A stretch of DNA of 64,000 bases from Bacteroidota bacterium (GTDB lineage: Bacteria; Bacteroidota; Ignavibacteria; Kapaibacteriales; UBA2268), in contig JAJRTW010000155.1 in the NCBI GenBank assembly GCA_024278075.1, positions 4,191 to 68,190 of the forward strand, written 5' to 3'. Shown piece after piece: positions 8,419 to 55,043 of this stretch; the first letter of the stretch is position 1, and each line of letters opens with the position of its first letter. The translations under genes and the position numbers were made by a program. The notes under the pieces were generated by a model. It was given only the letters and a program-made list of their open reading frames with translations. It was not told the origin of the DNA and made no database searches.

Positions 8419-8572
8419 CAGAACTATTCAATAGCCACGTGCTTTAGCTCGTGGAAGCCCAAATCCCCGAATTAAAACTCGGAGCTATATATTCCTTCAT
8501 ACTTCAATAGCCATGTGCTTTAGCTCGTGGAAGCCCAAATCCCCGAATTAAAACTCGGGGCTATAAATCTTT
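8419..8572. repeat. Tandem direct repeat, 2 x ~77 bp
   Basis: Units 'ttcaatagcca[ct]gtgctttagctcgtggaagcccaaatccccgaattaaaactcgg[ag]gctata' at ~8428 and ~8505 are ~97% identical. Each has an inverted repeat ccacg...cgtgg. Confidence 0.8.
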
Positions 8573-24477: not shown

Positions 24478-25191
24478 ATGACCTACATTCAGACACCAGG
24501 GACATATTTATCATCCGACAGTTGTGACTGTTGCGAGGACGAGCAGATCGTTCTGCAGTCGCTTTCTTCATTGTCAGAGAATGATGATAGTACGCCGATT
24601 GATTATCCGTTCAAGGCTTTGGTTTCATGGGTGTTCGGTCAGCTTGGACATAGCTACTACCAAGCGATTGCAGAGATTGCCAGCCGAATTAATTACAACC
24701 GAGGTTTCAAATGCTATCCCTTTCAATGGGATATGCTGACAAAAGCCTGCTTCAGAAACGATGAAATTGAAATCGTAGTTAACACCTACGGGAATCTCGC
24801 CCTCAAAAAAATAATTCAGGAATACAGCGAAAAAAAATTATCAGAAGCCGAATTGAATGTCATTATTCAAACGGTGTCCGAAGTAAGTGGAAAACCGTTA
24901 GCAAGGGTTGAGCTTATTCTTAAAAATTTATTTTGGGCAACAAAGGACGGTTCGGTGAAATGGGATGCACTCTTGCGGCCAAATACTTATCAGTCGTATT
25001 ATGAAATGAGGACAGTCCCTGAAGAATGGGACAAATGCTTCTGGGATTGCAAACTAAAGAACGCTCTGTTTGGTTCGCTCAAATGGATATTTATTGTCGG
25101 CGGTATTGTCGGCGTTGCTTATGTATATCCAAAGCTGCCAAAACACTTGCAGCCTCATAGGAAATTGTTGAAAGGTAAAGGGGATAAATAA
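24478..25191 (+). CDS. Hypothetical C-tail-anchored protein, paralog 1 of pair
   Basis: 237 aa with a C-terminal TM 'WIFIVGGIVGVAYVY'. The central region aligns with the next gene (NYNRGFKCYPFQW..ILKNLFWATKDG vs NHNRGKKCYPIKF..ILKNMFWAIYDG). Confidence 0.5.
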   Translation: MTYIQTPGTYLSSDSCDCCEDEQIVLQSLSSLSENDDSTPIDYPFKALVSWVFGQLGHSYYQAIAEIASRINYNRGFKCYPFQWDMLTKACFRNDEIEIVVNTYGNLALKKIIQEYSEKKLSEAELNVIIQTVSEVSGKPLARVELILKNLFWATKDGSVKWDALLRPNTYQSYYEMRTVPEEWDKCFWDCKLKNALFGSLKWIFIVGGIVGVAYVYPKLPKHLQPHRKLLKGKGDK

Positions 25192-25817
25192 TGAGCTATA
25201 ATTATGACAATACGGTTGTTCAAAGAATGCCTGCCCCGGTACGAGGGATGGACGGATTGAGCGGTGGCCTCAAGAAGTCCGTGCTTCCCTACAGATTAGC
25301 TACGTTTGAACTCCATAATCGAATTAATCATAATCGTGGTAAAAAATGTTATCCAATAAAATTTAGTTGGTTCACAGATGCCTGCTTTGACTATGATGAA
25401 ATAAGGACTGTCATTGATGACTATATTAAATTACTCTCCCAAGACACTATTAAAAAATATAATGAGAAGACATTAAGCCAATCCGAATTAAATAATATAG
25501 TACAGAAGGTAGCACAAGCCTCTGGAATTATTAGGGAGCGGGCAGAGATCATTCTGAAGAATATGTTTTGGGCAATATATGACGGCGATATTAAGCATGA
25601 TGACCTTGTCCGAGATGCAAACAATGGGGGAAACAACAATGGGGGGGCAAATCAGGATGGGGGGATAGATATTTCTGAACTTAAATCAAAAATATTGGTA
25701 GCAAGAGCGAGTAAATATGGTAATTGGATACTCGTTGCCGCTGCCGGTGTTGGCAGTATTGCGGCAGTTCAGTATTTCAGAAAAAAAGGCAAGAAAAAAT
25801 CCCGCAGCAGGAAATAA
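25191..25817 (+). CDS. Hypothetical C-tail-anchored protein, paralog 2; begins MSYN..GLSGG
   Basis: 208 aa with a C-terminal TM plus KKGKKKSRSRK tail. ATGA start/stop overlap with the upstream gene. Confidence 0.5.
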   Translation: MSYNYDNTVVQRMPAPVRGMDGLSGGLKKSVLPYRLATFELHNRINHNRGKKCYPIKFSWFTDACFDYDEIRTVIDDYIKLLSQDTIKKYNEKTLSQSELNNIVQKVAQASGIIRERAEIILKNMFWAIYDGDIKHDDLVRDANNGGNNNGGANQDGGIDISELKSKILVARASKYGNWILVAAAGVGSIAAVQYFRKKGKKKSRSRK

Positions 25818-26372
25818 ATGGAACTAAAGCGAGAGAATATCGGCAGTGGTGATTCTGCTGTGCGGAAAACGGTTAAGGCTCACATGATACGACTGGCTCG
25901 CAGGGATGCCGGCGAGGAAGCTATCATTGAGCTGGCAATTAAATTTCAGAAAAAAGCAGACGACGATCTGCACAAAGCGAAATTAGCTCTTGATTGGGTT
26001 ATTGAAAATATAGAGTACAAATTCGACAAGGAATTAGTCGAAAAATACTTCCCGGACGAAAAGAAACCGGAATCAGTCGAGTTTGTCACAGCCCCGGTTC
26101 ACCTGCTGAAAACCAAAGAGGGTGACTGCGATGATATGTCGGTATTGTTAGCGGCTTTTTATATCGCAATGGATTTGCCGGTGAATTTCAAAACGATTGC
26201 GTGGAAGGAAATTGAACCACGCAAGAAATCGAAAGACGCTTTCAGTCATGTCTATACCGAGGTCGGGCTGTTTATTGATGACGAACCATATTGGATACCG
26301 AGCGATCCGGTGATTAAGGAATTCGGCAAGGAAAAAGCACCCGTGAACAGAGCAGAAATATTTCGAGTATAA
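25818..26372 (+). CDS. Transglutaminase-like / papain-fold Cys-His-Asp domain protein (putative peptidase)
   Basis: 'EGDCDDMSVLLAAFYIAMDLPV' (G-x-C...L..A....G-x-P pattern), then 'SHVYTEVGLFIDDEPYWIPSDP' (His then Asp) matches the transglutaminase-like cysteine-protease core. Confidence 0.45.
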   Translation: MELKRENIGSGDSAVRKTVKAHMIRLARRDAGEEAIIELAIKFQKKADDDLHKAKLALDWVIENIEYKFDKELVEKYFPDEKKPESVEFVTAPVHLLKTKEGDCDDMSVLLAAFYIAMDLPVNFKTIAWKEIEPRKKSKDAFSHVYTEVGLFIDDEPYWIPSDPVIKEFGKEKAPVNRAEIFRV

Positions 26373-26401
26373 ATTATTATCAGCATATAGGGGAAATAAC
26401 G

Positions 26402-26938
26402 ATGGGATACAACTCAGGAACAGCTATTGCGAACCGAAATAGAAGTTTAAACGGGCTGGCCGGTTGCGGATGCGGCGGGGCCCCTGTAATGGGACTTAGA
26501 GGACTTAGTGCATTGACTGACGAAATGACGGCGAAAGTCCTTGCCCATATCAACAATCTTACGACAGCCAATATTGCGAATATCGCAGCCAAATTGGTAG
26601 CCGGCGACACAACACCTTTGGTCAATGAATTATACAATGCGGTCAGGGCTGCATGTAATACGGGAACCGAGGCTGAGGTTAAGAAAAAAATCACAGATTA
26701 CATTGCGACTATGAATCCGGCGGATTATACGGCTATCGGTGCTGGTATTATCACAGGCAACAGGGATGCACTTATCAGCCATGCTAACGCTGTAGCTAAT
26801 AAGGTATGCTCGGAGACTTTCCTTGAAAAAATAATCCCTGATGAATTAGAAGCAGGTTTCAAAAAGCATAAACCGACGTTGATAATTGCCGGTGCTGCAC
26901 TGATCGGTGTTATTATTTTGAAGAAACTAATGATGTAA
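26402..26938 (+). CDS. Small tail-anchored protein, paralog A (MGYN..GLAGCGCGG)
   Basis: 178 aa with a C-terminal TM 'LIIAGAALIGVIIL'. Shares the N-terminus and GCGCGG motif with the next gene. Confidence 0.5.
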   Translation: MGYNSGTAIANRNRSLNGLAGCGCGGAPVMGLRGLSALTDEMTAKVLAHINNLTTANIANIAAKLVAGDTTPLVNELYNAVRAACNTGTEAEVKKKITDYIATMNPADYTAIGAGIITGNRDALISHANAVANKVCSETFLEKIIPDELEAGFKKHKPTLIIAGAALIGVIILKKLMM

Positions 26939-26947
26939 GGTGACGCT

Positions 26948-27433
26948 ATGAGTTACAACACAAGCAATGGAACATTGAGCGGAATATCGGCATTGCCTTA
27001 CGGCGGTGACGGAGCGGCAATGCTGCCTTATAAACCCGTTGGGCAAACGGTTGTGAATGGGAATACGCCGATAGTGCCATATAAGCCTATTGGGCAAACT
27101 GCGGGTTGCGGTTGCGGTGGTAATTGCAATCATAACAACGGCCTGTCAGGGCTTTCGCAGGACGATATGGCGAAGGTGGCACTCGATCATTTCCAGAATC
27201 TCGGATTAGCAAAGCAATTATCCATTGGTGGTGGAATGGTGTCTGGCGATTTGAATCCACTTGCAGAGGAAATCGGCATTGCAGGGGCGAAGATTTGCAA
27301 GAAAGGGACTATTGAGGAATTAAAAGATAGGTGGGTTGCCGGCAAGGATTGGGTTTATATCGGTGGAATAAGTGTATTGAGCATGGTGATATTGAAACTT
27401 GTGTTGAACGCAAAGAATTCGAAGAAAAGGTAA
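26948..27433 (+). CDS. Small tail-anchored protein, paralog B (MSYN..AGCGCGGNC..GLSGLS)
   Basis: 161 aa with a C-terminal TM and an SD 'aaggtga' upstream. Confidence 0.5.
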   Translation: MSYNTSNGTLSGISALPYGGDGAAMLPYKPVGQTVVNGNTPIVPYKPIGQTAGCGCGGNCNHNNGLSGLSQDDMAKVALDHFQNLGLAKQLSIGGGMVSGDLNPLAEEIGIAGAKICKKGTIEELKDRWVAGKDWVYIGGISVLSMVILKLVLNAKNSKKR

Positions 27434-27445
27434 AGTGGAAAGATT

Positions 27446-27835
27446 ATGTCTTATAACGATGAAAATAACAGTGCAGGCTATGATACCGCTATATCTCAAC
27501 CTCCCATACGTTTTGAAACTCCTCTGAGGATCAGGACGGGGCAAGTGTCTGATTGCCTGAATCCTGGCAGCCTATCAGGATTGACGTTGAGGGAAATTAA
27601 AATTGATCTTGCTAAGAAATTAGCAGAGCTGACACCGGAAGAACAAGAGAAAATCAAAAAAGCAATGGCATCACGGGATCAAGATGAATTAGCGAAACAA
27701 GTAAATAATATTTTAGAAGAGACATCTGTCGAGGAAAAGACAGGTTTTGGGAAATTTTGGGCTGAATATAAATCGTATGTGATCGGGGCAGGTGTCAGCC
27801 TTATTGTATTAACAATCGTAAAGAAGTATATCTGA
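27446..27835 (+). CDS. Small tail-anchored protein, paralog C (MSYN..SLSGLT)
   Basis: 129 aa with a C-terminal TM 'VIGAGVSLIVLTIV'. Confidence 0.5.
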   Translation: MSYNDENNSAGYDTAISQPPIRFETPLRIRTGQVSDCLNPGSLSGLTLREIKIDLAKKLAELTPEEQEKIKKAMASRDQDELAKQVNNILEETSVEEKTGFGKFWAEYKSYVIGAGVSLIVLTIVKKYI

Positions 27836-27836
27836 T

Positions 27837-29387
27837 ATGGATATAGCAACATTAGAAGACCGTAATCTTGGTACAGTATCCGGCTTGGGCGGCTGGGGAG
27901 CTGATATGAATAAAAAGTGGGGAGGGACTACAGCATCGCTTCATCTGCAACCTATTCGTGAACGCAAGCTATATCATTATAACGATATTACGAGATGGGA
28001 AGATGCGAACGGCAATTCACCGAAAATCAAAGCAGAAATTGTCCGGCGTGGTGCCGTGCCGCATTATTCCATCCTTGGCCACTTGGGGCTTGCTCAACAG
28101 TTCATCAGAGGCGGAGATGTGCATATCTTCACCGATGATGTTGGGAACTTAATAATATTTGGGCTTTATGAATGCCGGAGTGATGACGTCCGGAAATGCT
28201 CGAAGCCTTCAAGGATGAGGGTGTTATATGATGCTGGAGTGCTGTTCAAAGATATTAGTCCCAGTATTGTTAATAAAACAATGGTCAAAACGGATAGGAA
28301 GACAGGTTCAGGATGGCCCGGCGAGACTACCAAGAATATATTTTGGGATAAAAAATGGATGAACAAAATGATACAGCGGGAAAATGAGGGGTTCTCTCCT
28401 GTGCCGTATCTGTATTTTGTTTATGATGTTAATCCGGTAACATTTAGCAGTGTTGTGATGGACATTGCGAATGTAGTATTGGCTTCTGCCGGCATGATTG
28501 CCAATTTCGTGACGGGCGGGGTTGTTAGCCCAATAGTCAATGCCGGTGTGAGTGTATTTACCAAATTGGTTGCGGGAGTTGCCAAAGACGGGAACATAAC
28601 GATCAATGATTTAACTGATGCCGTCGTTGCTTCAGCCCCGATATTGCTATCCGAAGATGACGTAGCCGCTACCCTGAAGAAAAATGTACCGATTGACATA
28701 AAGCCTCTTCAATCATTAGTCGAAGAAGGTGCTTTGGTATACCAAGCAGCGGCAAATGATGATCACGAATCTGTCTCGAAGTTGCTTGGAATTGATATTC
28801 GTTCGTTGGCCGGCCAGTTCCTCATGGCTGACCTGAAAAGTTATGATACTTATTCAATAACTGGTTCGGCACAGAAAAGATTATCTGATGTCGAAAAAAT
28901 CATGCAGTCGGTGCAAAATGCAGATATGATGTTGAATATGACAACGCAATACGACAGAATGAGCAGGGCGGCTTATGTCGAAAAAAACGCATTAATTCAT
29001 CACCCGATTCAGCAGTTTTTGATTAATGCTCAGGCAAATGTACAGATTAATAGCATGACAGATGAATTGAAGGGATTCATTGCCGGGTTCCCCAATGCTT
29101 TGGGTGCGGTTAAAATGATTGTACAAAACAATGATATGAATGTTCAAGAATTTAACGCTCTTTTGAATATCATTACGAACAGAGATATAGGGAAAAACGA
29201 TTTAGACCGATTAACAACAGACGCTTTAATGGAAAGGGCGAAGCATTATAAAGGCAAAAAATTTGTATTGCCATCGAACCTGCCTAACCATTTGATCGAT
29301 ACTGTTTCAGAAAAAATTAACAGGGAACTGCCTGGCGTAACAGTAATTAATCCAAAGAAACAGAAATATTACAGGGAGTTTGTATAA
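27837..29387 (+). CDS. Hypothetical 516-aa protein (N-terminus ..TVSGLGGWG..)
   Basis: Long ORF in the structural block with no Walker A, so not a terminase. The internal hydrophobic segment 'ANVVLASAGMIANFVTGGVVSPIVNAGVSVFTKLVAGVA' could be a membrane or fusion-like segment. Confidence 0.45.
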   Translation: MDIATLEDRNLGTVSGLGGWGADMNKKWGGTTASLHLQPIRERKLYHYNDITRWEDANGNSPKIKAEIVRRGAVPHYSILGHLGLAQQFIRGGDVHIFTDDVGNLIIFGLYECRSDDVRKCSKPSRMRVLYDAGVLFKDISPSIVNKTMVKTDRKTGSGWPGETTKNIFWDKKWMNKMIQRENEGFSPVPYLYFVYDVNPVTFSSVVMDIANVVLASAGMIANFVTGGVVSPIVNAGVSVFTKLVAGVAKDGNITINDLTDAVVASAPILLSEDDVAATLKKNVPIDIKPLQSLVEEGALVYQAAANDDHESVSKLLGIDIRSLAGQFLMADLKSYDTYSITGSAQKRLSDVEKIMQSVQNADMMLNMTTQYDRMSRAAYVEKNALIHHPIQQFLINAQANVQINSMTDELKGFIAGFPNALGAVKMIVQNNDMNVQEFNALLNIITNRDIGKNDLDRLTTDALMERAKHYKGKKFVLPSNLPNHLIDTVSEKINRELPGVTVINPKKQKYYREFV

Positions 29388-29863
29388 TGTATAACAGAGA
29401 AAATGTAGTTGCTACTATGCGTAAGCCGTGCAGTCAATCCTGTTTGCCAGACGATGCCGACTGTAACCCATGCGATCAGTCTCGTGGCGTTGATGGGACT
29501 GTGAATGTGAATTTAATATTAAACTCCGGCAATGACGCTTCAAGCCGAATGCCAATCGATGCAAGTACGCAGTCTCCGGTATTTCAGCCATACGTTTTAC
29601 AGCCGAATATGGTAACGCCTACGATGGTGCAACCGATGATGATTGAGCCGGGTATTTATGAAAATAAATACAATTCCGATGTCAATATTCAATATCCGGA
29701 CGGGAGTATTGTAGAAAGTGGCGACGGAATTATCTATGAGCCACAACCCGGCAACGGACAGCATATCCCCGAAGGCCATCGCCATAATCAATTCCAATAT
29801 ATCGACAGAGCGAGGGTGACAAAGAAAAGTTGTGTTGAGAAGTTTTACCCAGAGTTTATATAA
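29387..29863 (+). CDS. Cys-rich hypothetical protein (MYNREN.., CSQSC..DCNPCD)
   Basis: 158 aa; ATGT overlap with the upstream gene. Confidence 0.4.
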   Translation: MYNRENVVATMRKPCSQSCLPDDADCNPCDQSRGVDGTVNVNLILNSGNDASSRMPIDASTQSPVFQPYVLQPNMVTPTMVQPMMIEPGIYENKYNSDVNIQYPDGSIVESGDGIIYEPQPGNGQHIPEGHRHNQFQYIDRARVTKKSCVEKFYPEFI

Positions 29864-31278
29864 TGAGTTACAGAACTGCTAATAACACGATCCAGGGATT
29901 GGGGCAGGTTGATTATAACGCTGTCCTCGATCCGCTATGGGCTGATGCCAAGCGTGCTACCGACAGGTGGTCGCAGTCCAGCAACAATCCGGCTGTGCCG
30001 TTTCTCAATAAGATGTGGGAATTGCTTGGGGCTAATAATTGGATATATCGACTGGGCGGGGGGGCCCCCATCAGTGGGACTACATGGGACTTTGGCGACT
30101 ATCATATATCTTATACCGCAACGAACTTTGACGGGGGTAACCATCCGTCCGGCATTCCTGAATGGAATGGACAAAATCAGAGAGACCCGTACGGGCATGG
30201 CTGGCGGTTAAACTTCACGATATGCAAGCGGCCATTTGCGGGTGTGTTGTATGGCGATAGAGAGCAAGCATCGCAGACCACACGTAGGACAGCTTGGACA
30301 CCCGGCCCGCCAAAAATAAATAAATTCCCTCCGATTTACGATCGGGGTCTCCCGCTTTGCGGAAACGAAGTGCCTATTAATATAGGGTGTATCACAGAAT
30401 CAGTATTGAAGGGTGATTACTCGATAGACAAAATGGTTAATATGTATAGTGCGGCGGCTGATCCACCGAAGGTTGGTGATGATGGCAGCCTTTACCACAA
30501 CTATTATATTATGCCTGACGGCAAGATGTGGGGCTATTTCGGCGAGGGCAATGGCGAAACTATATACTGCTACCTCGGCAAATTGGACTGCCTGCCATTT
30601 GCAGCATTTCTTATGTATAATTCGTGGCCATCTGAAACATTCAGACATCCTTCCGGGAAGTTACGACTGGTAATGCCGGATGGCAGGCAATGGCTATATG
30701 ATGATTCAAGCGATGAGCCTAAGGACGATATTCGGGCAGATTGGATTAATAAAACAGGGCGAGTATGCCCTTTGACCGTAGAAAATTGTTATTTAGAAGC
30801 AGATTTTCTTAGAATATATGGCAACCCTGTTAGCACTGGCTACGATACCGGCAGAGGATACCGCTTGTATTATATGCAAGACGGGTCGGTATGGCATATG
30901 GACGAAGACAACGAATACCGGATATGTCCTTATCATTCAGGAAATCCACCCAAAGATAATCCACCAACGGATGGACAATGTAATTGCAATTGTGTTGAAG
31001 AGACAATACAAGAGACATTGTATCTGAATCCAATCAGGCAGAATGCCGATGACGTGCCGATTAATTTAATCAAGACTACGAGAATATGCGATCCTGCTCC
31101 ATATCAGGAAACGGTTAAAACAGATTGTGATGAATTATTGCCTGATATTGCCCGGCAGATGGCATTGATCCGAAGAGGTATTACACCGACGCCACAACAA
31201 TTTGCACCTGGCACTACGCCTGGCACACAACCAGAGGAAATATTTTATTTCCCAAATAATATTGGAAGAATAATTTAA
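29863..31278 (+). CDS. Hypothetical 471-aa protein (MSYR..GLGQ..) with C-terminal 5-Cys domain
   Basis: The C-terminus 'CNCNCVEETIQETLYLNPIRQNADDVPINLIKTTRICDPAPYQETVKTDCDELLP' is paralogous to the next two genes. Confidence 0.5.
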   Translation: MSYRTANNTIQGLGQVDYNAVLDPLWADAKRATDRWSQSSNNPAVPFLNKMWELLGANNWIYRLGGGAPISGTTWDFGDYHISYTATNFDGGNHPSGIPEWNGQNQRDPYGHGWRLNFTICKRPFAGVLYGDREQASQTTRRTAWTPGPPKINKFPPIYDRGLPLCGNEVPINIGCITESVLKGDYSIDKMVNMYSAAADPPKVGDDGSLYHNYYIMPDGKMWGYFGEGNGETIYCYLGKLDCLPFAAFLMYNSWPSETFRHPSGKLRLVMPDGRQWLYDDSSDEPKDDIRADWINKTGRVCPLTVENCYLEADFLRIYGNPVSTGYDTGRGYRLYYMQDGSVWHMDEDNEYRICPYHSGNPPKDNPPTDGQCNCNCVEETIQETLYLNPIRQNADDVPINLIKTTRICDPAPYQETVKTDCDELLPDIARQMALIRRGITPTPQQFAPGTTPGTQPEEIFYFPNNIGRII

Positions 31279-31287
31279 GAATAAATC

Positions 31288-31572
31288 TTGAGGAATATTA
31301 TGTATAGAACAGATAATCCAAACGGACTAAGCGGGTTGGGGCAGACTAACCCTGACTGCCCATGTACCTGTGTTGAAAAAACAGTGAAGGAAACATTGTA
31401 TATAAACCCAATTCGGCTTTCCGGCGATGACGTGCCGGTAACTGTTGCCAAGAGCGGGCGGAGATGCGATCCGATACAACAGACATCTGAATACGCTTGG
31501 GATTGCGAGACACTGTTGCCAAACATCAAGAGGAGCATTGAAAACAATCGTTACCGTGCAAGGGGTGCCTAA
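31288..31572 (+). CDS. Stand-alone copy of the 5-Cys domain (MYR..NGLSGLGQ..CPCTCVEKT..)
   Basis: 94 aa: 'CPCTCVEKTVKETLYINPIRLSGDDVPVTVAKSGRRCDPIQQTSEYAWDCETLLP'. Confidence 0.5.
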   Translation: MRNIMYRTDNPNGLSGLGQTNPDCPCTCVEKTVKETLYINPIRLSGDDVPVTVAKSGRRCDPIQQTSEYAWDCETLLPNIKRSIENNRYRARGA

Positions 31573-31631
31573 AACGGGCAGTAATTATTAAGCAAGCGAA
31601 TTATTAACTAATAAATTAAAAGGGGAATATT

Positions 31632-32123
31632 ATGCCACCGGACTTATGGATACCAGACGGAACAAGAGCATACCAGGGCGGAGAAACAGCAGGAGACTCG
31701 GCAACACGCCCTGGCGGAGGTGGAGTGCCTCCGAATAACACACAGCCTTGCCCGTGCGATTGCCGGGATGTAGTGGAGAACGAAACATGGTATATATCCA
31801 GGTCAGCATCGCAATATGCAATTCCGTTTGACATTACAAAAACGCACATGAATTGCGACCCGTATGAGGGCGAGCAAGTATACGACCCGAAGTGTCCTGA
31901 ATTCACCGCAGCCCTTCAGCAAATGGGATATACGGGGGTCAAGGGCATCAGCGGGTTGAATTGCGGCCACACAATAAGCGGATTAGCAGGCTACAAACCG
32001 GGTGACGGCGAAGCAAAAGCGAAGGCAGAAGAGCAGCCATATTACAAAAAGCCGGTACTGGTTATCGGGGCGGCTGCCGCAGTAGGCGGACTGACATATT
32101 TGTTTCATACAATGAATAAATAA
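31632..32123 (+). CDS. Third 5-Cys-domain protein with C-terminal TM anchor
   Basis: 'CPCDCRDVVENETWYISRS...IPFDITKTHMNCDPYEGEQVYDPKCPEF'; also 'GISGLNCGHTISGLAGY'. C-terminal TM 'VLVIGAAAAVGGLTYLF'. Confidence 0.5.
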   Translation: MPPDLWIPDGTRAYQGGETAGDSATRPGGGGVPPNNTQPCPCDCRDVVENETWYISRSASQYAIPFDITKTHMNCDPYEGEQVYDPKCPEFTAALQQMGYTGVKGISGLNCGHTISGLAGYKPGDGEAKAKAEEQPYYKKPVLVIGAAAAVGGLTYLFHTMNK

Positions 32124-32136
32124 TGAGGGTAGCGAA

Positions 32137-32352
32137 ATGTATCGTGCAAGTATTTTAGAAGGATTGGGTGGGGCCGAATATGACCCTTTAACCAATCCGC
32201 CCGGTGACACCGGACAGCCAACTAAATCCGATGAACAGAAATGCACAGGCGAGGATTGTTTGGACGAATGCAATGTGTATTGGCCTTTGTGGGGAGGGCT
32301 TGTATTTGTGCTATATACATGGTTTTTGCCCAAGCTAAGTACAAAGAGATAA
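32137..32352 (+). CDS. Small protein (MYR..LEGLGG..) with C-terminal TM
   Basis: 71 aa with the C-terminal hydrophobic segment 'LWGGLVFVLYTWFL'. Confidence 0.35.
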   Translation: MYRASILEGLGGAEYDPLTNPPGDTGQPTKSDEQKCTGEDCLDECNVYWPLWGGLVFVLYTWFLPKLSTKR

Positions 32353-32376
32353 TTAACAATTATATAATATATATCT

Positions 32377-33021
32377 ATGGAGGATTTTATGAAACGCAGG
32401 AGGAAAGGTAAGATTAATTTCGGTGCTAATTTCAAAAAAGCCACGGCCCAACCTGCCATTAACGAAAGCCTTTGGGCTTTGCTGGCTCTGCCATTGTGGA
32501 TAGTGCCATCGTCCGTTCTCAAGCTAACCGGCTGGAGTGGCTGGGCGATGAGTTTCGCAACCACATGGCTGGCCGGGGCATTGTTTGACAAGCCGGCAAT
32601 TCGATACGCCGCAGTAGGACTGGGCATTACTCAGATCGGTTATACGAAAATGAGCGGTGCTTTGAATGACATAGGCATACCGCCCTGGCGAATGGGCGGC
32701 GGAGCCGATTACAACGGACAGAAGATAGAAGCGAAAAAGGACGAATCCGGCGGGGCAGCAGGGCTGTTCGGGATGCAGGGCTATCCGAGTCCGATAGCAT
32801 TACCGGTGCAGGAAGGGGCAAGGGTGATTAACACACCACAAGGCCCGATTATGAGCAGACCCGCACCTGAATTGACAACAGCACCAGCACCATCGGATAC
32901 AATGATGGGCATGAGCGGCTATAACGCTGACGACGGCGGCCAGCTTAACGACAATGTAAGTTTAATGCCGGGAAGATTCCAGCGGCCTACATTGCATGAC
33001 GCATATAGCAAAGTGGGTTGA
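32377..33021 (+). CDS. Hypothetical membrane protein
   Basis: 214 aa with two central hydrophobic helices and a Gly-rich C-terminus. Confidence 0.4.
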   Translation: MEDFMKRRRKGKINFGANFKKATAQPAINESLWALLALPLWIVPSSVLKLTGWSGWAMSFATTWLAGALFDKPAIRYAAVGLGITQIGYTKMSGALNDIGIPPWRMGGGADYNGQKIEAKKDESGGAAGLFGMQGYPSPIALPVQEGARVINTPQGPIMSRPAPELTTAPAPSDTMMGMSGYNADDGGQLNDNVSLMPGRFQRPTLHDAYSKVG

Positions 33022-33079
33022 ATAAGACATTATTTTAATTAACAGTTATTAATTCATTTACTAATTAATGGAGTAGATT

Positions 33080-33712
33080 ATGGAACAGAAATTTCTACCG
33101 GGCAATGAAATAGTTGCGAAACCCGGAGCGCCACCACCAGGGACAAGGAGTGAGGACACCGTCTTGTTAGGCTTCGATACAGCTTATTGGGCATCCGGTG
33201 CAGTCACAATCGACGAACAGCAGTTGTTTGCACAGTCATCGGTGACAAAAACACCGAGATACAGGAGCTTCGTTTTTGATACGGAAGCTCAAAAGAAAAA
33301 CATGATAATCACGGGGCTTAGGGCTTCGCATATCATGGAGTTTGCAGCTCTTGGCACAGCACCGTCTGCTGTCAGCCAGATGGTATTTGAGGAATTCTCT
33401 CTTTTGGAGATTACACTTCGTGAGAAGAAATATCCTTCGATACCGCTTGCTGAATTGCTGCCATACAAAGGCTACTGGAACGGATCATCTGTCTCGCATC
33501 AGTTGAACGATTATCCGTATTACACACTGCCGGAGCCGATAATTGTTCCTGAAGCAGGTAACATCGACTTTAACTTCTCACCGCTTTCGGGATACACTAC
33601 CGGTGCGTCGAACAACAGCAACCCGCAGTTGCCAGGACTTGGATTAACAAGCAACTATGGCTTCTTTATCAAGTTTTATATCTATGGTAAACAGCGTAGA
33701 GCTATTGCGTAA
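33080..33712 (+). CDS. Hypothetical (possible virion/baseplate) protein
   Basis: 210-aa ORF with a consistent plus-strand coding run. Confidence 0.4.
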   Translation: MEQKFLPGNEIVAKPGAPPPGTRSEDTVLLGFDTAYWASGAVTIDEQQLFAQSSVTKTPRYRSFVFDTEAQKKNMIITGLRASHIMEFAALGTAPSAVSQMVFEEFSLLEITLREKKYPSIPLAELLPYKGYWNGSSVSHQLNDYPYYTLPEPIIVPEAGNIDFNFSPLSGYTTGASNNSNPQLPGLGLTSNYGFFIKFYIYGKQRRAIA

Positions 33713-33752
33713 CCAAGTGGTTGGTGGATTGATTTTAATAATCTCTGGTTCT

Positions 33753-33772
33753 CCCCCCGGTTGTCCGGGGGG
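33753..33772 (+). other. GC-only stem-loop (ccccccgg-ttgt-ccgggggg) in intergenic space
   Basis: A perfect 8-bp G/C stem within an AT-rich island, with no U-tract. It could be a regulatory or processing hairpin. Confidence 0.4.
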
Positions 33773-33800
33773 CGGATCAGTTTAAACAGAGAGGAAAGCA

Positions 33801-34652
33801 ATGGAAGCAAAAAGTCAATTATTTGGCTCTAAGATATTTAATGTGGTCAAGTCATTGTCGGTTACGGCGACAACTGGTACGGACACCGTAGAGGAGTATT
33901 TGCGTACACCGGATTCGTATATGAAGGTAAATGCAATTCGTGCGGAGGTGTGGCACGGCGGCACTAAAATATTGCCGACTGCTCTAAATTTGGACAATAT
34001 GACGGTGCAGCTTCAGGATGTAGGCGAATCGGATAGTTTGTTTGCCTCGAACCCGATTCATGTGTTCACATTGAATAAGCTCGGCAGCGGCGACAATTTC
34101 AGAGGCTTCGTTTTTGAGCCTGGAAAAAGGCTCAAGATAACATTTGTGCATGATGGTTCGGGTGCAGGGAATATCACTTCAGGCACACTTGAATTGCGTT
34201 TGATTTTCTCAGGCAAGAAAATTGAGAAACCCGAAGGCCGCCTGCTTTCATTAAGCCGGCAGTTCTATAATCATTGCATGAAATTCACTATTCCTGTCGA
34301 TAGTGATGGCGTAACGCTAAATATGCCTGCTCCGGGCTTGGATATGGCTATCGATCAGATGGCAGTCGAAGTAATAAACAACGGCACGATAATTCAGTGG
34401 AACAGTGCCTCGCAGGATAAGTTGAATTTGAAGATGGAGGAACTGCAAGGCGATAATTTGTTCGGAACCGGCAGTATGGATGTCTTCTCAATGGAAGAAG
34501 TGGGAATGAATATTAACTTTGAGGGATTCAACTTCGACGCAGAGACCGATATTGAAGCGACGGTGAGCCATTCATCGGTGAATGAGACTTCAAACGCCTA
34601 TACGGTAAAGCTAATATTTTCCGGCTCGCCCAAAAACGGAATATTATTTTAA
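33801..34652 (+). CDS. Hypothetical structural protein
   Basis: 283-aa ORF. Confidence 0.4.
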   Translation: MEAKSQLFGSKIFNVVKSLSVTATTGTDTVEEYLRTPDSYMKVNAIRAEVWHGGTKILPTALNLDNMTVQLQDVGESDSLFASNPIHVFTLNKLGSGDNFRGFVFEPGKRLKITFVHDGSGAGNITSGTLELRLIFSGKKIEKPEGRLLSLSRQFYNHCMKFTIPVDSDGVTLNMPAPGLDMAIDQMAVEVINNGTIIQWNSASQDKLNLKMEELQGDNLFGTGSMDVFSMEEVGMNINFEGFNFDAETDIEATVSHSSVNETSNAYTVKLIFSGSPKNGILF

Positions 34653-34663
34653 GGGAACAAACG

Positions 34664-35389
34664 ATGCTAAAAGCTCTTGATAGTACGGATTCCACTTACC
34701 TGGCCGGAGTGTATAAAAGCCGGTGGCAATCGGCGATTCTGTCTTGGTTTTCTTCTACTCAATCTACTCAGCCATCGGACTCTCACATGCCAGACCGTTG
34801 GGACGGGCTGATTTATGACAGCGGCGGTGTCGAAATGGAAAAGCTCGGTGCCGATGTTGCTTACACCGGTTCGGAAGATTTGCAGAATAATCCATATTCG
34901 GCACGTTTGAGACCTCTAACGGATTATAGCTTTCTGAAAGCAGCGAAAAATATAATGATAGTCAAATGTGTATTTAGTGCGTTTGATGCTACGAAGGTTG
35001 GCAGTTCTCATCAAACTACTGCCGTCAATACGGCTTTGTCAGATTCCCTGAGCAATGTAAACAACGCATACATACAGTCACGTTTTTTGAATGACATGCC
35101 TGTCACTTGGATGCCAAATTTATTCAGGCCCATAGTTAAAATCGGCGGTACGAATATCTTCAGGGAATTGAAGTTGTCGGCATTCGGCGATAATAATAAC
35201 AATGAAGGTGATTTAGGGATCGGATGGCCACTTCCATTTGAGTTTCACAAATACGAAATGTTCAATGATCCGATTGATACTATTGATGTTGAGGCGGCAG
35301 TCGGGCAATTCATCGACGTTAGCGGTACTTTGTATTGCAAACGGTATCCGGTGAGAATGGACATGGTTGTTACATATCAGAAAAAGTAA
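34664..35389 (+). CDS. Hypothetical structural protein
   Basis: 241-aa ORF. Confidence 0.4.
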   Translation: MLKALDSTDSTYLAGVYKSRWQSAILSWFSSTQSTQPSDSHMPDRWDGLIYDSGGVEMEKLGADVAYTGSEDLQNNPYSARLRPLTDYSFLKAAKNIMIVKCVFSAFDATKVGSSHQTTAVNTALSDSLSNVNNAYIQSRFLNDMPVTWMPNLFRPIVKIGGTNIFRELKLSAFGDNNNNEGDLGIGWPLPFEFHKYEMFNDPIDTIDVEAAVGQFIDVSGTLYCKRYPVRMDMVVTYQKK

Positions 35390-35390
35390 T

Positions 35391-35915
35391 ATGAAAATGA
35401 CATCACAGCAGGTGTACAATTTAATATTAAGCACCTCAATTTACATAACCGGACTGATAGACGATTTTGACGACATCGACCCGAGAGAACTGGCGGAATG
35501 GGGGCATTCGGTCGCCAAATACGAAAGCATGTACGACACGAAGGCCAAAAATCCCGCAAGCTCTGCTAAAGGGCTGATGCAATTAGTGGACAAGACAAAA
35601 GAATGGATGGAAAAGAAATACTATGGCGGCGAAATTGCCGAATCGAACAAAATGTATGACCCGAAATATAATGTTAAAATCGGGCTGGCTTATTTAGCGT
35701 ATCTGTTCAACAGGTACAAACACGAAAGCGACCCCTGGAAACGGGCGGTAATCGCATATTATTATGGGCATTATAAGTCCGAAGACCCTGACGGATATTG
35801 GAAACGTGTATTTGGGTATAATAAAGAATTTGACTACGGAGATTTAGGGAAAGATTACAAGCCCGAATATACTGATTTACCAAAGCAAAAGGGGTTCTAT
35901 TTAGAATTTACATGA
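35391..35915 (+). CDS. Lytic transglycosylase (SLT domain)
   Basis: 'AKYESMYD...SSAKGLMQLVDKT' (ES...GLMQ) and 'AYYYGH' (AYNxG-like) signatures. Confidence 0.65.
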   Translation: MKMTSQQVYNLILSTSIYITGLIDDFDDIDPRELAEWGHSVAKYESMYDTKAKNPASSAKGLMQLVDKTKEWMEKKYYGGEIAESNKMYDPKYNVKIGLAYLAYLFNRYKHESDPWKRAVIAYYYGHYKSEDPDGYWKRVFGYNKEFDYGDLGKDYKPEYTDLPKQKGFYLEFT

Positions 35916-35931
35916 TACATGAGGCAAAAAA

Positions 35932-37095
35932 ATGAAACGTAATATTGAAGCAATGAAGTTGAGCAATTTCGAGCGTGACCTTGTCTATACGATTGGCATT
36001 CCACGGACGAAATCGCCAATGGCAAGGAGAATCGAATTCGTATCGGGCGAAAACCCGATTACTCGTCATGGCAGATGGTTCCATGATAATGGCTATAAGA
36101 ATCCGATGGATTATTTCACAGCTAATCCTGACGGCCTCGACAGGAAGGCGTATAGTGTTTACATCACTAATGGTGACGGCACATATCAGCTATTTTACAT
36201 CGGCACACCTTCACTCGGCAATTCACAAAACACCGCACTGAATGACAATTTAACACACAACAGTTATGACCCGGGCAATTCAAAGGACATAAAAGATATG
36301 TCAGAAAAAATGTTTGAATCGCAAAATGAAAGTACCAAACAGCAGCTTGATACAATTAGGGATAACTTCAAGGAATTGATGGCAGGAAAAGATCAGCAAA
36401 TTGAGATGCTCAGAATGCAGATAGAAAACTTGCAGGTAAATTCCGGAGGGAACGTGAAAGAATGGTCGGAGATGCTCCAGCAGGCACGTGAGGAAATAAA
36501 TAGTTGGGCCGATAAATACGACGAGGTAGTCTCCTCGATGACAACGCAGATTATCGAAGCGGAACGAAGGACTAATGAAGCGGAGAAGAAATTTGAGACG
36601 GCACAGGCTGAATTTAAGGCAATGCAAGAGCAAAAAATATTTGAGAAAACGTTGCATGAAGAATTTGAGCAGGAAGCCGAGGAGACATTGAAGGGGTTAG
36701 AAGAGGCCAATGCAAGCAAGGGCAATCTTATTTCTGCTATTGCAAAACCCTTTCTTGAAAATGAACAGGTGCTGGGTTCTCTTGCGAATGCCGCCGCAAA
36801 ATTGGTTGAGAAACTATCAAACTTAGGGCAGGGGCAGCAGCCCCCGCAACCGATGTATCCGCCTAATATGTCAATGATGAATAATCAAATGCCTGTGCAG
36901 AATCCGATGCCGAATTCAATGATGAACGGCGGTACCCCGGGCGTGGCAATGCCAAATGTTGTAAATCCAAATGTTGCAAATCCGGTTGTTGAAGATATGT
37001 CTGTGCCGGTGTATAATCCGCCCGTTATGCCGGGCGTGGCGACAACAGGCGAAGCACAAGCAGGAACGAATTACAACGGGCAGCCGGAACAATGA
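35932..37095 (+). CDS. Coiled-coil protein with P/M/N-rich low-complexity C-terminus
   Basis: 387 aa. Residues ~120-260 are heptad-rich (EMLRMQIENLQ..). The C-terminus is 'QQPPQPMYPPNMSMMNNQMPVQNPMPNSMMNGGTPGVAMPNVVNPNVANP'. Confidence 0.45.
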   Translation: MKRNIEAMKLSNFERDLVYTIGIPRTKSPMARRIEFVSGENPITRHGRWFHDNGYKNPMDYFTANPDGLDRKAYSVYITNGDGTYQLFYIGTPSLGNSQNTALNDNLTHNSYDPGNSKDIKDMSEKMFESQNESTKQQLDTIRDNFKELMAGKDQQIEMLRMQIENLQVNSGGNVKEWSEMLQQAREEINSWADKYDEVVSSMTTQIIEAERRTNEAEKKFETAQAEFKAMQEQKIFEKTLHEEFEQEAEETLKGLEEANASKGNLISAIAKPFLENEQVLGSLANAAAKLVEKLSNLGQGQQPPQPMYPPNMSMMNNQMPVQNPMPNSMMNGGTPGVAMPNVVNPNVANPVVEDMSVPVYNPPVMPGVATTGEAQAGTNYNGQPEQ

Positions 37096-37400
37096 AAAAA
37101 CTTCAATTAATGTCGGACGTGCCGGATACGATCATAAAGGCTCTTGAGCAGATTAAGTTCGAGAAACTGCACGAAGCACAACGTGCGGGACTTATTTACG
37201 GCATGATAAATTTTATTCAGCAAAGCGGGTATCCGTATAAATCGGCTGACGTTGAATCGGAAACTATAAATACGATTATTCCGGCAGAGATGATCGACAC
37301 GATTAATCACCTGGATTTCAAGAAAATGACATCGGCACAGGTCAGGGTATTAAGGGAAAATATTATTAAGAGAACACCACAAAACTGGATAAGAATATGA
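37092..37400 (+). CDS. Hypothetical protein
   Basis: 102 aa; ATGA overlap with the upstream gene. Confidence 0.35.
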   Translation: MKKLQLMSDVPDTIIKALEQIKFEKLHEAQRAGLIYGMINFIQQSGYPYKSADVESETINTIIPAEMIDTINHLDFKKMTSAQVRVLRENIIKRTPQNWIRI

Positions 37401-37741
37401 ACGAGGAAAACGACGGTAATGGAATGAGCAGGGAAGAACATATGAAGAAGAAGAAAAGGCGTATCGATCATAATAAATTTGCCATTCTGTTTATGGTAAT
37501 CAATACGTTGTTTCTGCTTTATGTGATTGGATATACACATATTTCTTGGGATATGCTGGCATCGAAGATGTTCAACGTTTCGTTATATACGGTAATATTG
37601 TTTCTAATGATGAGATTTTTTAAGTCAAAATATGCAAGTACGACAAATAAGCTATGGGCCAATCCTATTGCTGTTGGTGTTTTCTTTATGGGCTATGCCA
37701 TTGGCCTCGGCCTCATACTCGCTGGCGGATCGAGCGTGTGA
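37397..37741 (+). CDS. Holin-like 3-TM small membrane protein
   Basis: 114 aa with three TM helices, sitting immediately before the CHAP peptidase. Confidence 0.4.
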   Translation: MNEENDGNGMSREEHMKKKKRRIDHNKFAILFMVINTLFLLYVIGYTHISWDMLASKMFNVSLYTVILFLMMRFFKSKYASTTNKLWANPIAVGVFFMGYAIGLGLILAGGSSV

Positions 37742-38327
37742 CAAGGCTCTTGAGTTCGACGGCATTAGAGAAACACCTGGCAAACAGAATACATCCCCTA
37801 TTATTGATAAAATGATTAAGCGGGGCGGCGGCCGGATTGGCTGGCCATGGTGCATGTACTTCGTTTACTATGTAGTAGATGAAGTATGCAGCACGCTCGA
37901 AATCGACAATCCATTGAAAAGAACGGGCAGTGTGGCCGCACAGCTTCATTTTGCCGAGCAGAATTATAGGAAAGGCCTGAAAGTTATCTACCCTTTTGAA
38001 TCGTATGCGAAATTCAAATCAATGAAAGGGGACATTCTGATCTTCAGGAAAGGGGGCAGCCTGAAGAAAAGCAGCCTGAAGGGACGATGGAACGGACATA
38101 CGGCTTTTGTTGTTAGTCAGATTAATGACAATCTGCTTGCTACGATTGAGGGCAACACTAACAAAAGAGGCTCCCGTGAGGGCGACGGAGTATATCGCAA
38201 AACACGTAAGATCAAATCGACAGGCCGGTTGAAATTAGGAGCGATTGTCAGAATGGAAATTACGATAGAAATTACGGTAGATATACCGGATTATGTGAAA
38301 ATACCATGTGATTTAGTGAGGAAATGA
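37632..38327 (+). CDS. Secreted CHAP-domain peptidoglycan hydrolase (endolysin candidate)
   Basis: Signal peptide MQVRQISYGPILLLLVFSLWAMPLASA. CHAP motifs are 'GWPWCMYFVYY' (Cys) and 'NGHTAFVV...IEGN' (His). The annotated start overlaps the holin-like ORF by 110 nt; an alternative start is at 37695. Confidence 0.55.
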   Translation: MQVRQISYGPILLLLVFSLWAMPLASASYSLADRACDKALEFDGIRETPGKQNTSPIIDKMIKRGGGRIGWPWCMYFVYYVVDEVCSTLEIDNPLKRTGSVAAQLHFAEQNYRKGLKVIYPFESYAKFKSMKGDILIFRKGGSLKKSSLKGRWNGHTAFVVSQINDNLLATIEGNTNKRGSREGDGVYRKTRKIKSTGRLKLGAIVRMEITIEITVDIPDYVKIPCDLVRK

Positions 38328-50381: not shown

Positions 50382-50393
50382 GGAGGGCATATC

Positions 50394-50675
50394 ATGCCAG
50401 CAACAGCGAAAGTATCCACAAAGAAAAATGTCCGAATTTCCGGGCTGACAAAAAAGGATAAAGTTCAGGAAATAAGTGTGCCGGGACATGGCTCATTTAA
50501 AAAAGTCAAAGCCCGTAAATCTTCATCGGCTTCCAAACGCAAGGCATCGGCTAAGAAAAGCACTCCCTGGACACCAGCCAAACGCAAGGCCGCAGCCAAA
50601 AAAGCAGCAGCCACCAGGAAGCGTAATGCACGAAAGAATAGGGCATCGAGCCGTAATAAGATGTTATACGGATAA
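50394..50675 (+). CDS. Small histone H1/AlgP-like K/A-rich basic protein
   Basis: 93 aa 'KRKASAKKSTPWTPAKRKAAAKKAAATRKRNARKNRA'. SD 'aaggaggg' upstream. Confidence 0.5.
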   Translation: MPATAKVSTKKNVRISGLTKKDKVQEISVPGHGSFKKVKARKSSSASKRKASAKKSTPWTPAKRKAAAKKAAATRKRNARKNRASSRNKMLYG

Positions 50676-50722
50676 TTCTTTCAATTTCAATCTATGGGGG
50701 GCATAAACGCCCCCACTTTATT

Positions 50723-51160
50723 ATGCAACACTTCCATTTCAATATGACTGAGGAGGAGGCGAAATTTTATTTTCTCAAACTCTCCAAACGATTGCACCCG
50801 GACAAAAATAACGCCCGGGATGCTAATAGCCAGTTCGATGAAATGAAAAAGGAATATGACGACTGGCTCGCCATTAAAAGGCACTGGAAGACATTAAAAA
50901 AACATTTCGGCACACCGCAAGTGATTATTAGAGAAGTAGTAAAGAAAGTGCCTGTTTATTATCCGCAATATATCGAACGGCAACCACAGCCGATTGATCC
51001 ACGCATAATGAATACCATTGAGAAATTGCCGGAAACGCTCGACAAAGGCATTGAAGCGGTCGGTGCCGCTATGAATTTGGTCTCGGGGCTAACCAAAGCA
51101 TTCAAACAAGGCGGGCAATATTACAGGCAGGTGAAAAAGGCAAATAATGGCCGACTATAG
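50723..51160 (+). CDS. J-domain (DnaJ-like) protein
   Basis: 'FYFLKLSKRLHPDKNNARDANSQFDEMKKEYD' carries the HPD motif. Confidence 0.6.
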   Translation: MQHFHFNMTEEEAKFYFLKLSKRLHPDKNNARDANSQFDEMKKEYDDWLAIKRHWKTLKKHFGTPQVIIREVVKKVPVYYPQYIERQPQPIDPRIMNTIEKLPETLDKGIEAVGAAMNLVSGLTKAFKQGGQYYRQVKKANNGRL

Positions 51161-53434: not shown

Positions 53435-53500
53435 AACTTTTTTTTGGAATGCAGGCAGGATTTGAACCTGCGTAACGCCGCCCGTTCTGCATTCGAGGGG
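53435..53500 (-). repeat. tRNA 3'-end-like element A (T-arm 'gcaggttcaaatcctgc' + acceptor-like inverted repeat gaatgcag/ctgcattc)
   Basis: Minus strand: gaatgcag-aacgggcggcgttac-GCAGG-TTCAAAT-CCTGC-ctgcattcc. It is too short (~48 nt) to be a tRNA. About 90% identical to the element at 54978-55043. Confidence 0.6.
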
Positions 53501-54977: not shown

Positions 54978-55043
54978 TGAACTCGATTTGGGATGCAGCC
55001 AAGATTTGAACCTGCGTAACGCCGACCGCTCTGCATTCTGTAG
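54978..55043 (-). repeat. tRNA 3'-end-like element B (copy of element A)
   Basis: 'gggatgcagccaagatttgaacctgcgtaacgccgaccgctctgcattc' is about 90% identical to element A, with the same 'gaact' leader. Confidence 0.6.

Follow-up and report, generated by a model that had tools for sequence, protein, structure and literature searches.

The window analysed here is a 64,000-nt stretch of DNA from a Bacteroidota bacterium (NCBI GenBank assembly GCA_024278075.1, contig JAJRTW010000155.1, positions 4,191 to 68,190), and our subject is a set of three consecutive genes for small membrane proteins located in an integrated, virus-like island within it. The three open reading frames (ORFs) lie on the plus strand in one frame and encode proteins of 178 aa (member 1, 26402-26938), 161 aa (member 2, 26948-27433) and 129 aa (member 3, 27446-27835). 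The intergenic gaps are 9-13 nt, and Shine-Dalgarno-like purine-rich stretches (GGGGA, AAGGTGA and GTGGAAAG) are found 5-8 nt 5' of the starts, as an initial, sequence-only reading of this DNA had described. Member 1 starts with MGYN and members 2 and 3 start with MSYN. The Ser codon of MSYN differs between the members (AGT versus TCT), which indicates that the MxYN start is conserved at the protein level. Members 1 and 2 both contain the exact hexapeptide GCGCGG (nt 26462-26479 and 27104-27121) within a shared AGCGCGG that is encoded with different synonymous codons (the sequence in member 1 is LAGCGCGG), and member 3 contains one Cys. A GL(S/R)GL(S/T)-type motif is present in all three proteins: GLRGLS in member 1, GLSGLS in member 2 and SLSGLT in member 3.

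A hydropathy scan placed the sole hydrophobic segment of each protein at its C-terminus (residues 158-178, 134-156 and 111-129 of members 1 to 3), followed by a short basic tail (KKLMM, NAKNSKKR and KKYI), and detected no N-terminal hydrophobic segment or signal peptide in the three proteins. One helix was found within ~30 residues of the C-terminus in each case, and all three are classed as tail-anchored on this basis. The shared start, the GLSGL-type motif, the C-terminal anchor with its basic tail, and the exact hexapeptide in two of the three proteins had all been pointed out by the sequence-only reading, and we confirm them. The short basic tail is compatible with a tail-anchored topology, and the bulk of each protein is predicted to lie on the cytoplasmic or particle-internal side because there is no signal peptide. 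A receptor-binding role, which had been put forward for the triplet, is therefore unlikely, and the island encodes a separate fibre-like protein (38329-39894). The N-terminal part of member 2 is a Pro/Tyr-rich region predicted to be disordered, and a predicted three-helix domain and the C-terminal helix follow. Modelling of member 2 with AlphaFold2 from seven aligned sequences gave a low-confidence structure (mean predicted local distance difference test score, pLDDT, 49) with a disordered region at residues 1-66, three helices at residues 71-134 and an end helix at residues 137-160, and GLSGLS is located at the junction of the disordered and folded parts in this model. Member 3 likewise has a helical domain before its C-terminal helix.

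Pairwise BLASTP alignments bear out the proposed paralogy. Members 1 and 2 are 37% identical over 97 aa (E value 2e-12), members 2 and 3 are 22% identical and collinear over their full length (E 2e-4), and members 1 and 3 match with an E value of 3e-3. By these alignments, members 1 and 2 are clear paralogues, and member 3, the most diverged of the three copies, is a weak but collinear relative. There is a second aligned segment between members 1 and 2 (E 6e-7), such that both halves of member 1 match the single helical domain of member 2. This suggests that the helical domain is probably duplicated inside member 1, although a half-versus-half comparison within member 1 was not significant (E 0.31).

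Bacterial C-tail-anchored inner-membrane proteins of the ElaB/YqjD/YgaM type have no signal peptide, a helical cytoplasmic domain and an extreme C-terminal helix ending in basic residues, and the triplet resembles them in this topology. However, there is no sequence relationship and no DUF883 match in Pfam, and the triplet differs in lying on a mobile element, in tandem arrays, with Cys/Gly motifs.

Related elements and copy number

Homologues of the transglutaminase-like gene that precedes the triplet (25818..26372) led to 24-54 kb metagenomic and IMG/VR contigs with the same syntenic block. These loci include L001 (54 kb), L003 (52 kb), L004 (39 kb), L005 and L076, the ~24-kb contigs L028, L030 and L034, and the IMG/VR viral contigs L071-L073 (29-35 kb). 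Ga0208226_1000127, Ga0208228_1000014 and Ga0181346_1000205 are the names of 24-kb contigs in this set. Synteny with the block of the window was found in L001, L003, L004, L005, L028, L030, L071-L073 and L076. The block starts with a ~200-aa tail-anchored protein, at least one small tail-anchored protein, the transglutaminase-like gene and the tail-anchored array, continues with a ~500-aa protein starting with (L)VTLED, Cys-rich proteins, a membrane protein and three β-rich proteins, and ends with a transglycosylase, a coiled-coil protein, a holin-like protein and a CHAP hydrolase. Several relatives adjoin host genes or an integrase, which indicates that the elements integrate, and the host guanine-cytosine content across the elements ranges from 28% to 49%. 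The setting of the tail-anchored family is thus a mobile, virus-like island, in which the family belongs to a conserved block of ~13 kb.

Copy number was counted as the number of tail-anchored genes between the transglutaminase-like gene and the ~500-aa gene. It is 0 in L005, 1 in L001, L003, L004, L028, L030, L071-L073 and the P0012 contig, 3 in the window and independently in L076, and up to 5 ORFs in one ENA contig. Member 1 has a homologue in L076 (3783-4403), and orthologues of member 2 are found in L001 (10554-10922), L004 (7850-8215) and L076 (4403-4759) and among database proteins (P0019-P0022). Judged from these comparisons, a single family of small tail-anchored membrane proteins, present as one copy in most relatives, has expanded in tandem in a lineage-specific manner to give the three genes. 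In a further locus, L075 (NCBI GCA_038317825.1), a cassette of an AbiEii toxin and DUF6088 lies on the opposite strand directly 3' of the transglutaminase-like gene (831-1882), which is the slot of the triplet.

The family is sparsely represented in databases. Member 2 (161 aa) and the 516-aa product of the gene following the triplet are singletons in a 5.8-billion-cluster database, and a word-indexed homology search with these two proteins returned only the query itself. An exhaustive HMMER search of 1.84 billion representative proteins found only four other family members, P0019-P0022 (103-127 aa). IMG/VR gave no match in a first scan with the 516-aa protein or in a scan with an alignment of the 241-aa family (one of the β-rich proteins), and a search of 185,579 species-representative genomes with the transglutaminase alignment found only distant, unrelated transglutaminase-like genes. 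The features of the family alignment are M-x-Y, GL(S/G)xLTDxE, IVxxHFKxLP, ICxxGxK, the helix and the basic tail, and GCGCG is exact or near-exact in 7 of its 10 sequences. Identity is 22-37% between paralogues and 25-29% to orthologues, compared with 45-56% across relatives for the adjacent transglutaminase-like gene, the homologues of which range from 40% to 59% identity. Both the fast evolution and the copy-number variation anticipated by the sequence-only reading are thus found across the related elements.

Several other identities were considered for the family and rejected. Lipobox-like sequences are present in member 1 (LAGC) and P0022 (LSGC), but no hydrophobic stretch precedes them, as a lipoprotein would require. 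The helix and basic tail recall a sortase, exosortase or rhombosortase signal, but the proteins lack a signal peptide, and the island was found to contain no gene of the sortase type. The proteins (129-178 aa with a membrane helix) were also compared with the short precursors (under ~100 aa) of ribosomally synthesised and post-translationally modified peptides or double-glycine bacteriocins, and Pfam scans of the island detected no C39 peptidase-ABC exporter or modification enzymes.

An N-terminal signature across the module

The triplet is a real tandem array, but it is not the isolated unit that had been described. About ten consecutive genes (24478-32352) carry M-x-Y starts, [LIV]-x-G-[LC]-[GST] sites and CxC motifs, and the signature-bearing genes flank the transglutaminase-fold gene on both sides. 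There are two tail-anchored paralogues upstream of the triplet, and parts of the N-terminal signature are present in the six genes 3' of it (516, 158, 471, 90, 163 and 71 aa). The MxYN, GLSGL and CxC motifs are therefore not private to the triplet but module-wide, and they are shared with large conserved proteins.

Upstream, the gene at 24478..25191 (plus strand, 237 aa; hydrophobic segment at residues 196-216 in the scan) is the first of a ~200-aa tail-anchored family that is found 5' of the transglutaminase-like gene in all relatives, and it has orthologues in L001, L028 and L030. Its paralogue at 25191..25817 (plus strand, 208 aa) starts with MSYNYDN and contains GMDGLSGGL, and the two products are 48% identical over 108 aa. 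The C-terminal hydrophobic stretch of the second protein, WILVAAAGVGSIAAVQYF, is weaker and below the scan threshold, and is followed by the tail RKKGKKKSRSRK.

Downstream, the conserved 516-aa protein (27837..29387, plus strand) has the N-terminal sequence ATLEDRNLGTVSGLGG and a central hydrophobic segment of ~30 aa (residues 203-231). Its orthologues in L001, L003, L004 and L005 are 24-31% identical, and (L)VTLED is also the start of the protein in L071-L073 and L076. The hydrophobic segment of this ~500-aa protein is central in most loci and C-terminal in L071-L073. VTLED resembles FTLIE of type IV pilin-like leaders, but no hydrophobic stretch follows it, and this identity was rejected. 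In L005 (6404-7039) and L006 (1284-2099), the ~500-aa homologue opens with a repeated form of the N-terminal motif, LVTLEDNLSGMQ in three tandem copies. Five further signature genes lie on the plus strand at 29387..32352. Their products are a Cys-rich 158-aa protein with a MYN start, a 471-aa protein (MSYR...IQGLGQ) with a C-terminal CxCxC domain, a 90-aa protein (start at 31300) with MYRTDNPNGLSGLGQ and CPCTC, a 163-aa protein with a CPCDC domain and a C-terminal helix, and a 71-aa protein (MYR...LEGLGG) with a hydrophobic C-terminal tail. The CxCxC domain is common to the C-terminus of the 471-aa protein, the 90-aa protein and the 163-aa protein.

We assessed the enrichment of these features in the window and in related loci. 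Tyr is found at residue 2 or 3 in 9 of 11 module genes of the window versus 4 of 78 other ORFs (P 6e-8), and in 23 of 64 module genes of related loci versus 13 of 208 other ORFs (P 2e-8). This Tyr possibly serves in recognition or anchoring at the N-terminus, or as a signal for degradation or processing. Within the N-terminal 90 residues, [LIVM]xG[LCG][GST] occurs at 9 sites in 8 of the 11 module proteins of the window, a count that is circular because the pattern itself had been read off the window by eye. In independent related loci, the same pattern occurs 3.3-3.9 times per 1000 residues in module proteins versus 0.25-0.5 times in other ORFs (P 7e-6), and a motif scoring matrix trained on the window is enriched in module genes of independent loci (P 3e-5). 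The CxC motif was recovered by a Gibbs sampler (z ~5). The hydropathy scan found a hydrophobic helix in 8 of the 13 genes of 24478-33021, and two more have weaker hydrophobic C-termini. Since the signature is common to the triplet and to large conserved proteins, it suggests one shared targeting, processing or assembly step.

These observations bear on whether the triplet is part of the element's core. The proteins could be accessory (moron-type) membrane proteins expressed from the prophage for superinfection exclusion, lysis timing or manipulation of the host membrane, diversified in an arms race and absent from any particle. Exclusion factors are commonly small inner-membrane proteins, and the triplet family comprises the fastest-evolving genes of the block, present in 0 to 5 copies at one slot, the same slot that holds the AbiEii/DUF6088 cassette in L075. 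However, almost every relative has at least one copy, compact 24-kb genomes included, the genes are co-oriented and closely spaced inside a conserved operon, and their N-terminal signature is shared with the large conserved proteins of the block. We consider an accessory role unlikely; within it, superinfection exclusion, one of the functions suggested by the sequence-only reading, is possible. As for the diversifying gene family proposed there, the fast divergence and the variation in copy number hold, whereas the shared signature argues for a step of targeting, processing or assembly that these proteins have in common, rather than for simple diversification of variants.

A transglutaminase-fold enzyme within the array

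The gene at 25818..26372 (plus strand) encodes a 184-aa protein without a signal peptide, which matches Pfam PF01841 (E 2.4e-8, 34.7 bits, cut-off 23). Cys104 (in GDCDD), His144 and Asp163 are invariant in 12 homologues, and the combination of the PF01841 core with a Cys-His-Asp triad assigns the protein to the transglutaminase-like superfamily and makes it a candidate cysteine protease. It is the best-conserved gene of the block. Because the enzyme is predicted to be cytoplasmic, is embedded in the array and is so well conserved, it is the obvious candidate for the shared step suggested by the signature.

One form of this step would be cleavage of the [LIV]-x-G-[LC]-[GST] sites by the adjacent enzyme, which would trim leaders or separate domains during maturation. 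The enrichment of the sites in the module is consistent with this idea, as is the position of the site of member 2, exactly at the boundary of the disordered region and the first helix in the low-confidence model. In fused multi-domain homologues, the site is present before each CxCxC domain, and in the window these domains are encoded by separate genes that start with the motif. The enzyme, with its invariant triad and without a signal peptide, is always located within the array. LapG, a Cys-His-Asp protease of the transglutaminase fold, reportedly cuts an N-terminal portion off a specific partner protein at a site of small residues and offers a precedent, and the enzyme described here shares this fold and triad. 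On the other hand, the site pattern was taken by eye from the window before it was tested, the CxC motif is absent in some family members (L003, L004), and the motif is at residues 2-12 in some. The enzyme might also cross-link or deamidate its substrates instead. Cleavage is compatible with membership of the triplet in a particle, but we regard it as somewhat doubtful, and a purely structural role of the motifs, or cross-linking by the enzyme, is a possible alternative to proteolysis.

The motif also resembles maturation and targeting signals of viruses. The adenovirus protease consensus is (M/I/L)XGX-G, and the [LIV]-x-G-x-G form found here fits it. As in the adenovirus, poxvirus (AG-X), African swine fever virus (GG-X) and T4 capsid-targeting systems, a short N-proximal motif is common to several structural proteins, which are putative in our case. 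In contrast to adenovirus, the candidate enzyme has a transglutaminase fold (PF01841) and not an adenain/Ulp1 fold, the host is bacterial, and the cleavage is putative. LapG differs in being periplasmic and calcium-dependent, in belonging to another Pfam family and in having a giant adhesin as substrate, whereas the enzyme here is a 184-aa minimal core with a predicted cytoplasmic location.

Virus-like content of the island

Host genes extend to ~23.9 kb of the window (including chemotaxis, M20 peptidase, OPT transporter, LPG-synthase-like, methyltransferase and SIS-domain genes). The island occupies the plus strand from ~24.1 kb to at least 51.2 kb. Beyond it, as far as 64 kb, lies a minus-strand block that contains methylases, DUF5131 and an Imm5-like gene. 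The candidate shell proteins are encoded on the plus strand at 32377..35389. They are a conserved 214-aa membrane protein and three conserved β-rich proteins of 210, 283 and 241 aa, with 23-39% identical orthologues in L001, L003, L004, L028, L030 and L071-L073. The 283-aa protein (33801-34652) is a tandem two-domain protein, as is its counterpart in L001 (15647-16723, 358 aa). The same protein consists of a single ~140-150-aa domain in L004 (13822-14280) and in L071-L073 (L071 15771-16196). These one- and two-domain forms may be reminiscent of single and double jelly-roll capsid proteins.

The next segment (35367..38327, plus strand) encodes a 182-aa SLT lytic transglycosylase, a 387-aa coiled-coil protein, a further two small proteins and a CHAP hydrolase (37632-38327), one of two CHAP hydrolases in the island. 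This hydrolase has an N-terminal hydrophobic segment and is preceded by one of the two small proteins, a two-helix holin-like protein (37397-37741), and the holin-like/CHAP pair is conserved in L001, L004 and L071. Since this separate lysis cassette is located ~10 kb 3' of the triplet, the triplet is unlikely to be a holin, and this identity was rejected. The fibre-like protein introduced above (521 aa) follows the hydrolase, and one segment of it resembles tail-fibre or minor tail proteins of phages.

Further downstream (45951..51160, plus strand) are genes for a 1476-aa ddrB-ParB and RecA-like P-loop protein, a basic 93-aa protein and a J-domain protein. The 1476-aa protein matches ParB and RecA-like (AAA_24/AAA_25/KaiC-type) families. 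The P-loop and J-domain proteins recur together in the 24-35 kb relatives (for example, L028 32-2697 and L071 604-2855), and the small J-domain (DnaJ-like) gene is always closely 3' of the RecA-like P-loop gene in these elements. The island contains one Walker A motif, in the 1476-aa protein, and L028 and L034 contain one each. As no other Walker A protein is present in the 24-kb relatives, the RecA-like protein could have a role in replication, in packaging or in both. Inside the 1476-aa gene there is a 158-nt direct repeat (46275-46432 and 47640-47797; 91% identical, 1365 nt apart), which indicates an internal duplication of a protein segment.

The tail-anchored proteins could also be small inner-membrane subunits of a non-viral DNA-transfer or secretion apparatus carried by an integrative element. 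The SLT protein, the many small membrane proteins, the large protein with a hydrophobic core and the coiled-coil protein recall type IV secretion gene sets, and no capsid or terminase was detected. However, no VirB4, VirD4 or VirB11-type ATPase and no relaxase were found, with only one Walker A motif in the island, while a holin-like and CHAP lysis pair and a fibre-like protein are present, and autonomous-looking 24-35 kb contigs are called viral by IMG/VR. We consider such an apparatus very unlikely, and a type IV secretion system proper was rejected, as the required ATPases are absent and lysis genes are present. A tailed prophage was rejected as well; the searches of the island detected neither a terminase or portal gene nor genes for an HK97 capsid or a tail.

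Homology searches linked the block to few known proteins. When phage and plasmid collections were searched with blastn and tblastn, the region, the transglutaminase-like protein, the two best-conserved β-rich proteins and member 1 were all without a match. The 50,697 phage records in these collections gave none for these proteins, in the case of member 1 at E values up to 1 (tblastn). The only match bearing on homology to known phage membrane proteins was a weak one to PHROG 13193, of unknown function (E 2e-4). PDB sequence searches with single proteins and family profiles, a Pfam search with 20 members of the β-rich families, a profile-profile comparison of two of the β-rich families and an Rfam search found no match, relationship or family. 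A single-sequence model of the 283-aa protein is β-rich and of low confidence (pLDDT 44). Foldseek matches obtained with this model and the model of member 2 (pLDDT 49) all had template modelling scores of ~0.2 and are meaningless.

Two repeats outside the block were also noted. Two copies of a tRNA-like mini-element (53443-53494 and 54987-55038, minus strand; 90% identical) are located between small minus-strand genes, with an 8-bp acceptor-like stem, a short hairpin, a T-arm-like hairpin (GCAGGTTCAAATCCTGC) and then CCA. Of the two, only the first folds well (-20.3 kcal/mol, z -2.5), and neither ARAGORN nor Rfam made a call. The element could be an attachment-site remnant or a tRNA mimic. 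In the host region, tandem 66-nt copies (8427-8492 and 8503-8568; 95% identical, hairpin-like) lie 5' of a Big_5-domain gene at 8606, and short palindromic motifs related to them, CAGTTGTTACAACTG, recur at 10352, 10393 and 16028.

Discussion

The conserved block is probably particle-building. Our preferred reading, to which we give a probability of roughly 45%, is that it builds a lipid-containing, non-tailed particle and that the triplet encodes membrane proteins of this particle, possibly processed or targeted through their N-terminal signature. We infer particle formation, membrane presence, topology and any proteolysis from the paralogy, predicted architecture, conservation, synteny, copy-number variation and motif enrichment. 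The suggestion of a non-tailed, probably lipid-containing particle comes from a conserved, co-oriented, packed block rich in small single-helix proteins, with wall hydrolases, a fibre-like protein and a separate lysis pair. Such a high share of membrane-helix genes is unusual for the structural modules of tailed phages and typical of membrane-containing phages (PMC6356626).

The protein plan would consist of a disordered M-x-Y N-terminus with CxC and [LIV]-x-G-L-[GST] motifs, a 60-90-aa helical domain, a C-terminal membrane helix and a short basic tail. Post-translational insertion would place the tail-anchored proteins in the cell membrane, with their helical domains kept on the cytoplasmic face, where they may help to organise or mark the membrane patch destined for the particle. 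This would parallel the role proposed for PM2 P3 and P6 and for the membrane proteins of PRD1, the patterning of the future membrane patch of the virion by proteins with a helical ectodomain at the bilayer (PMC6356626). Alternatively, the proteins may be membrane components of the assembly site of the particle. The N-terminal signature that the proteins share would tag them for one targeting or processing step, and the most plausible reader of the tag may be the Cys-His-Asp enzyme of the transglutaminase fold, which is predicted to be cytoplasmic and whose gene lies amid the array.

Like the triplet, PM2 P3/P6 and the small membrane proteins of PRD1 are clusters of small single-helix proteins in a structural gene block, and a virion-associated transglycosylase is encoded nearby in these phages, as SLT is here. 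However, the triplet has no sequence similarity to the PM2 and PRD1 membrane proteins, the elements are 24-45+ kb compared with 10-15 kb for internal-membrane phages (PM2, PRD1), and no recognisable double or single jelly-roll capsid protein or FtsK/HerA-type packaging ATPase is present. To our knowledge, the M-x-Y, LxGL and CxC signature together with a transglutaminase-fold enzyme is not known from PM2/PRD1-type phages.

Several points weigh against a lipid-containing particle with the triplet in its membrane. None of the structural candidates is linked by sequence to PDB, Pfam or PHROGs, and a capsid fold is not demonstrable, as the models are of low confidence and their Foldseek matches are meaningless. 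There is no dedicated packaging ATPase (FtsK/HerA-type); the single Walker A motif per genome is in a RecA-like, maybe replicative protein. The slot 3' of the transglutaminase gene is a variable hot spot, with the AbiEii cassette in L075, and accessory genes of prophages (morons) behave likewise. Lastly, the family protein in L071-L073 starts directly with MCNCNSGVSGLG, so that cleavage there would remove almost nothing, and the motifs may belong to the mature protein.

More broadly, the block may define an undescribed lineage of temperate, non-tailed, probably lipid-containing viruses of 24-45 kb, with shell and packaging proteins unrelated in sequence to known ones and with a short code (M-x-Y, [LIV]-x-G-L-[GST] and CxC) that would label many structural proteins, the tail-anchored array among them, and be read by a transglutaminase-fold protease for their maturation or for their targeting to the assembly membrane. 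We think this full combination unlikely, but if it were true, it would be a bacterial counterpart of adenovirus-type maturation. Small membrane proteins in the structural block of a virus are already known, but nothing described in the resources searched matches this family, its signature, its association with a transglutaminase-fold enzyme or the element as a whole.

The array alone is a modest result, a gene-family expansion. It led, however, to a coherent, conserved element of ~15 genes, the putative structural proteins of which are all invisible to Pfam, PHROGs and PDB sequence searches. The range of 0-5 copies of the tail-anchored family provides a handle on how these elements diversify their membrane components. 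If particles form, the element would represent a new kind of non-tailed, probably membrane-bearing bacterial virus. It would then offer a signal for maturation or targeting that can be tested, and transglutaminase-fold enzymes would gain a new role.

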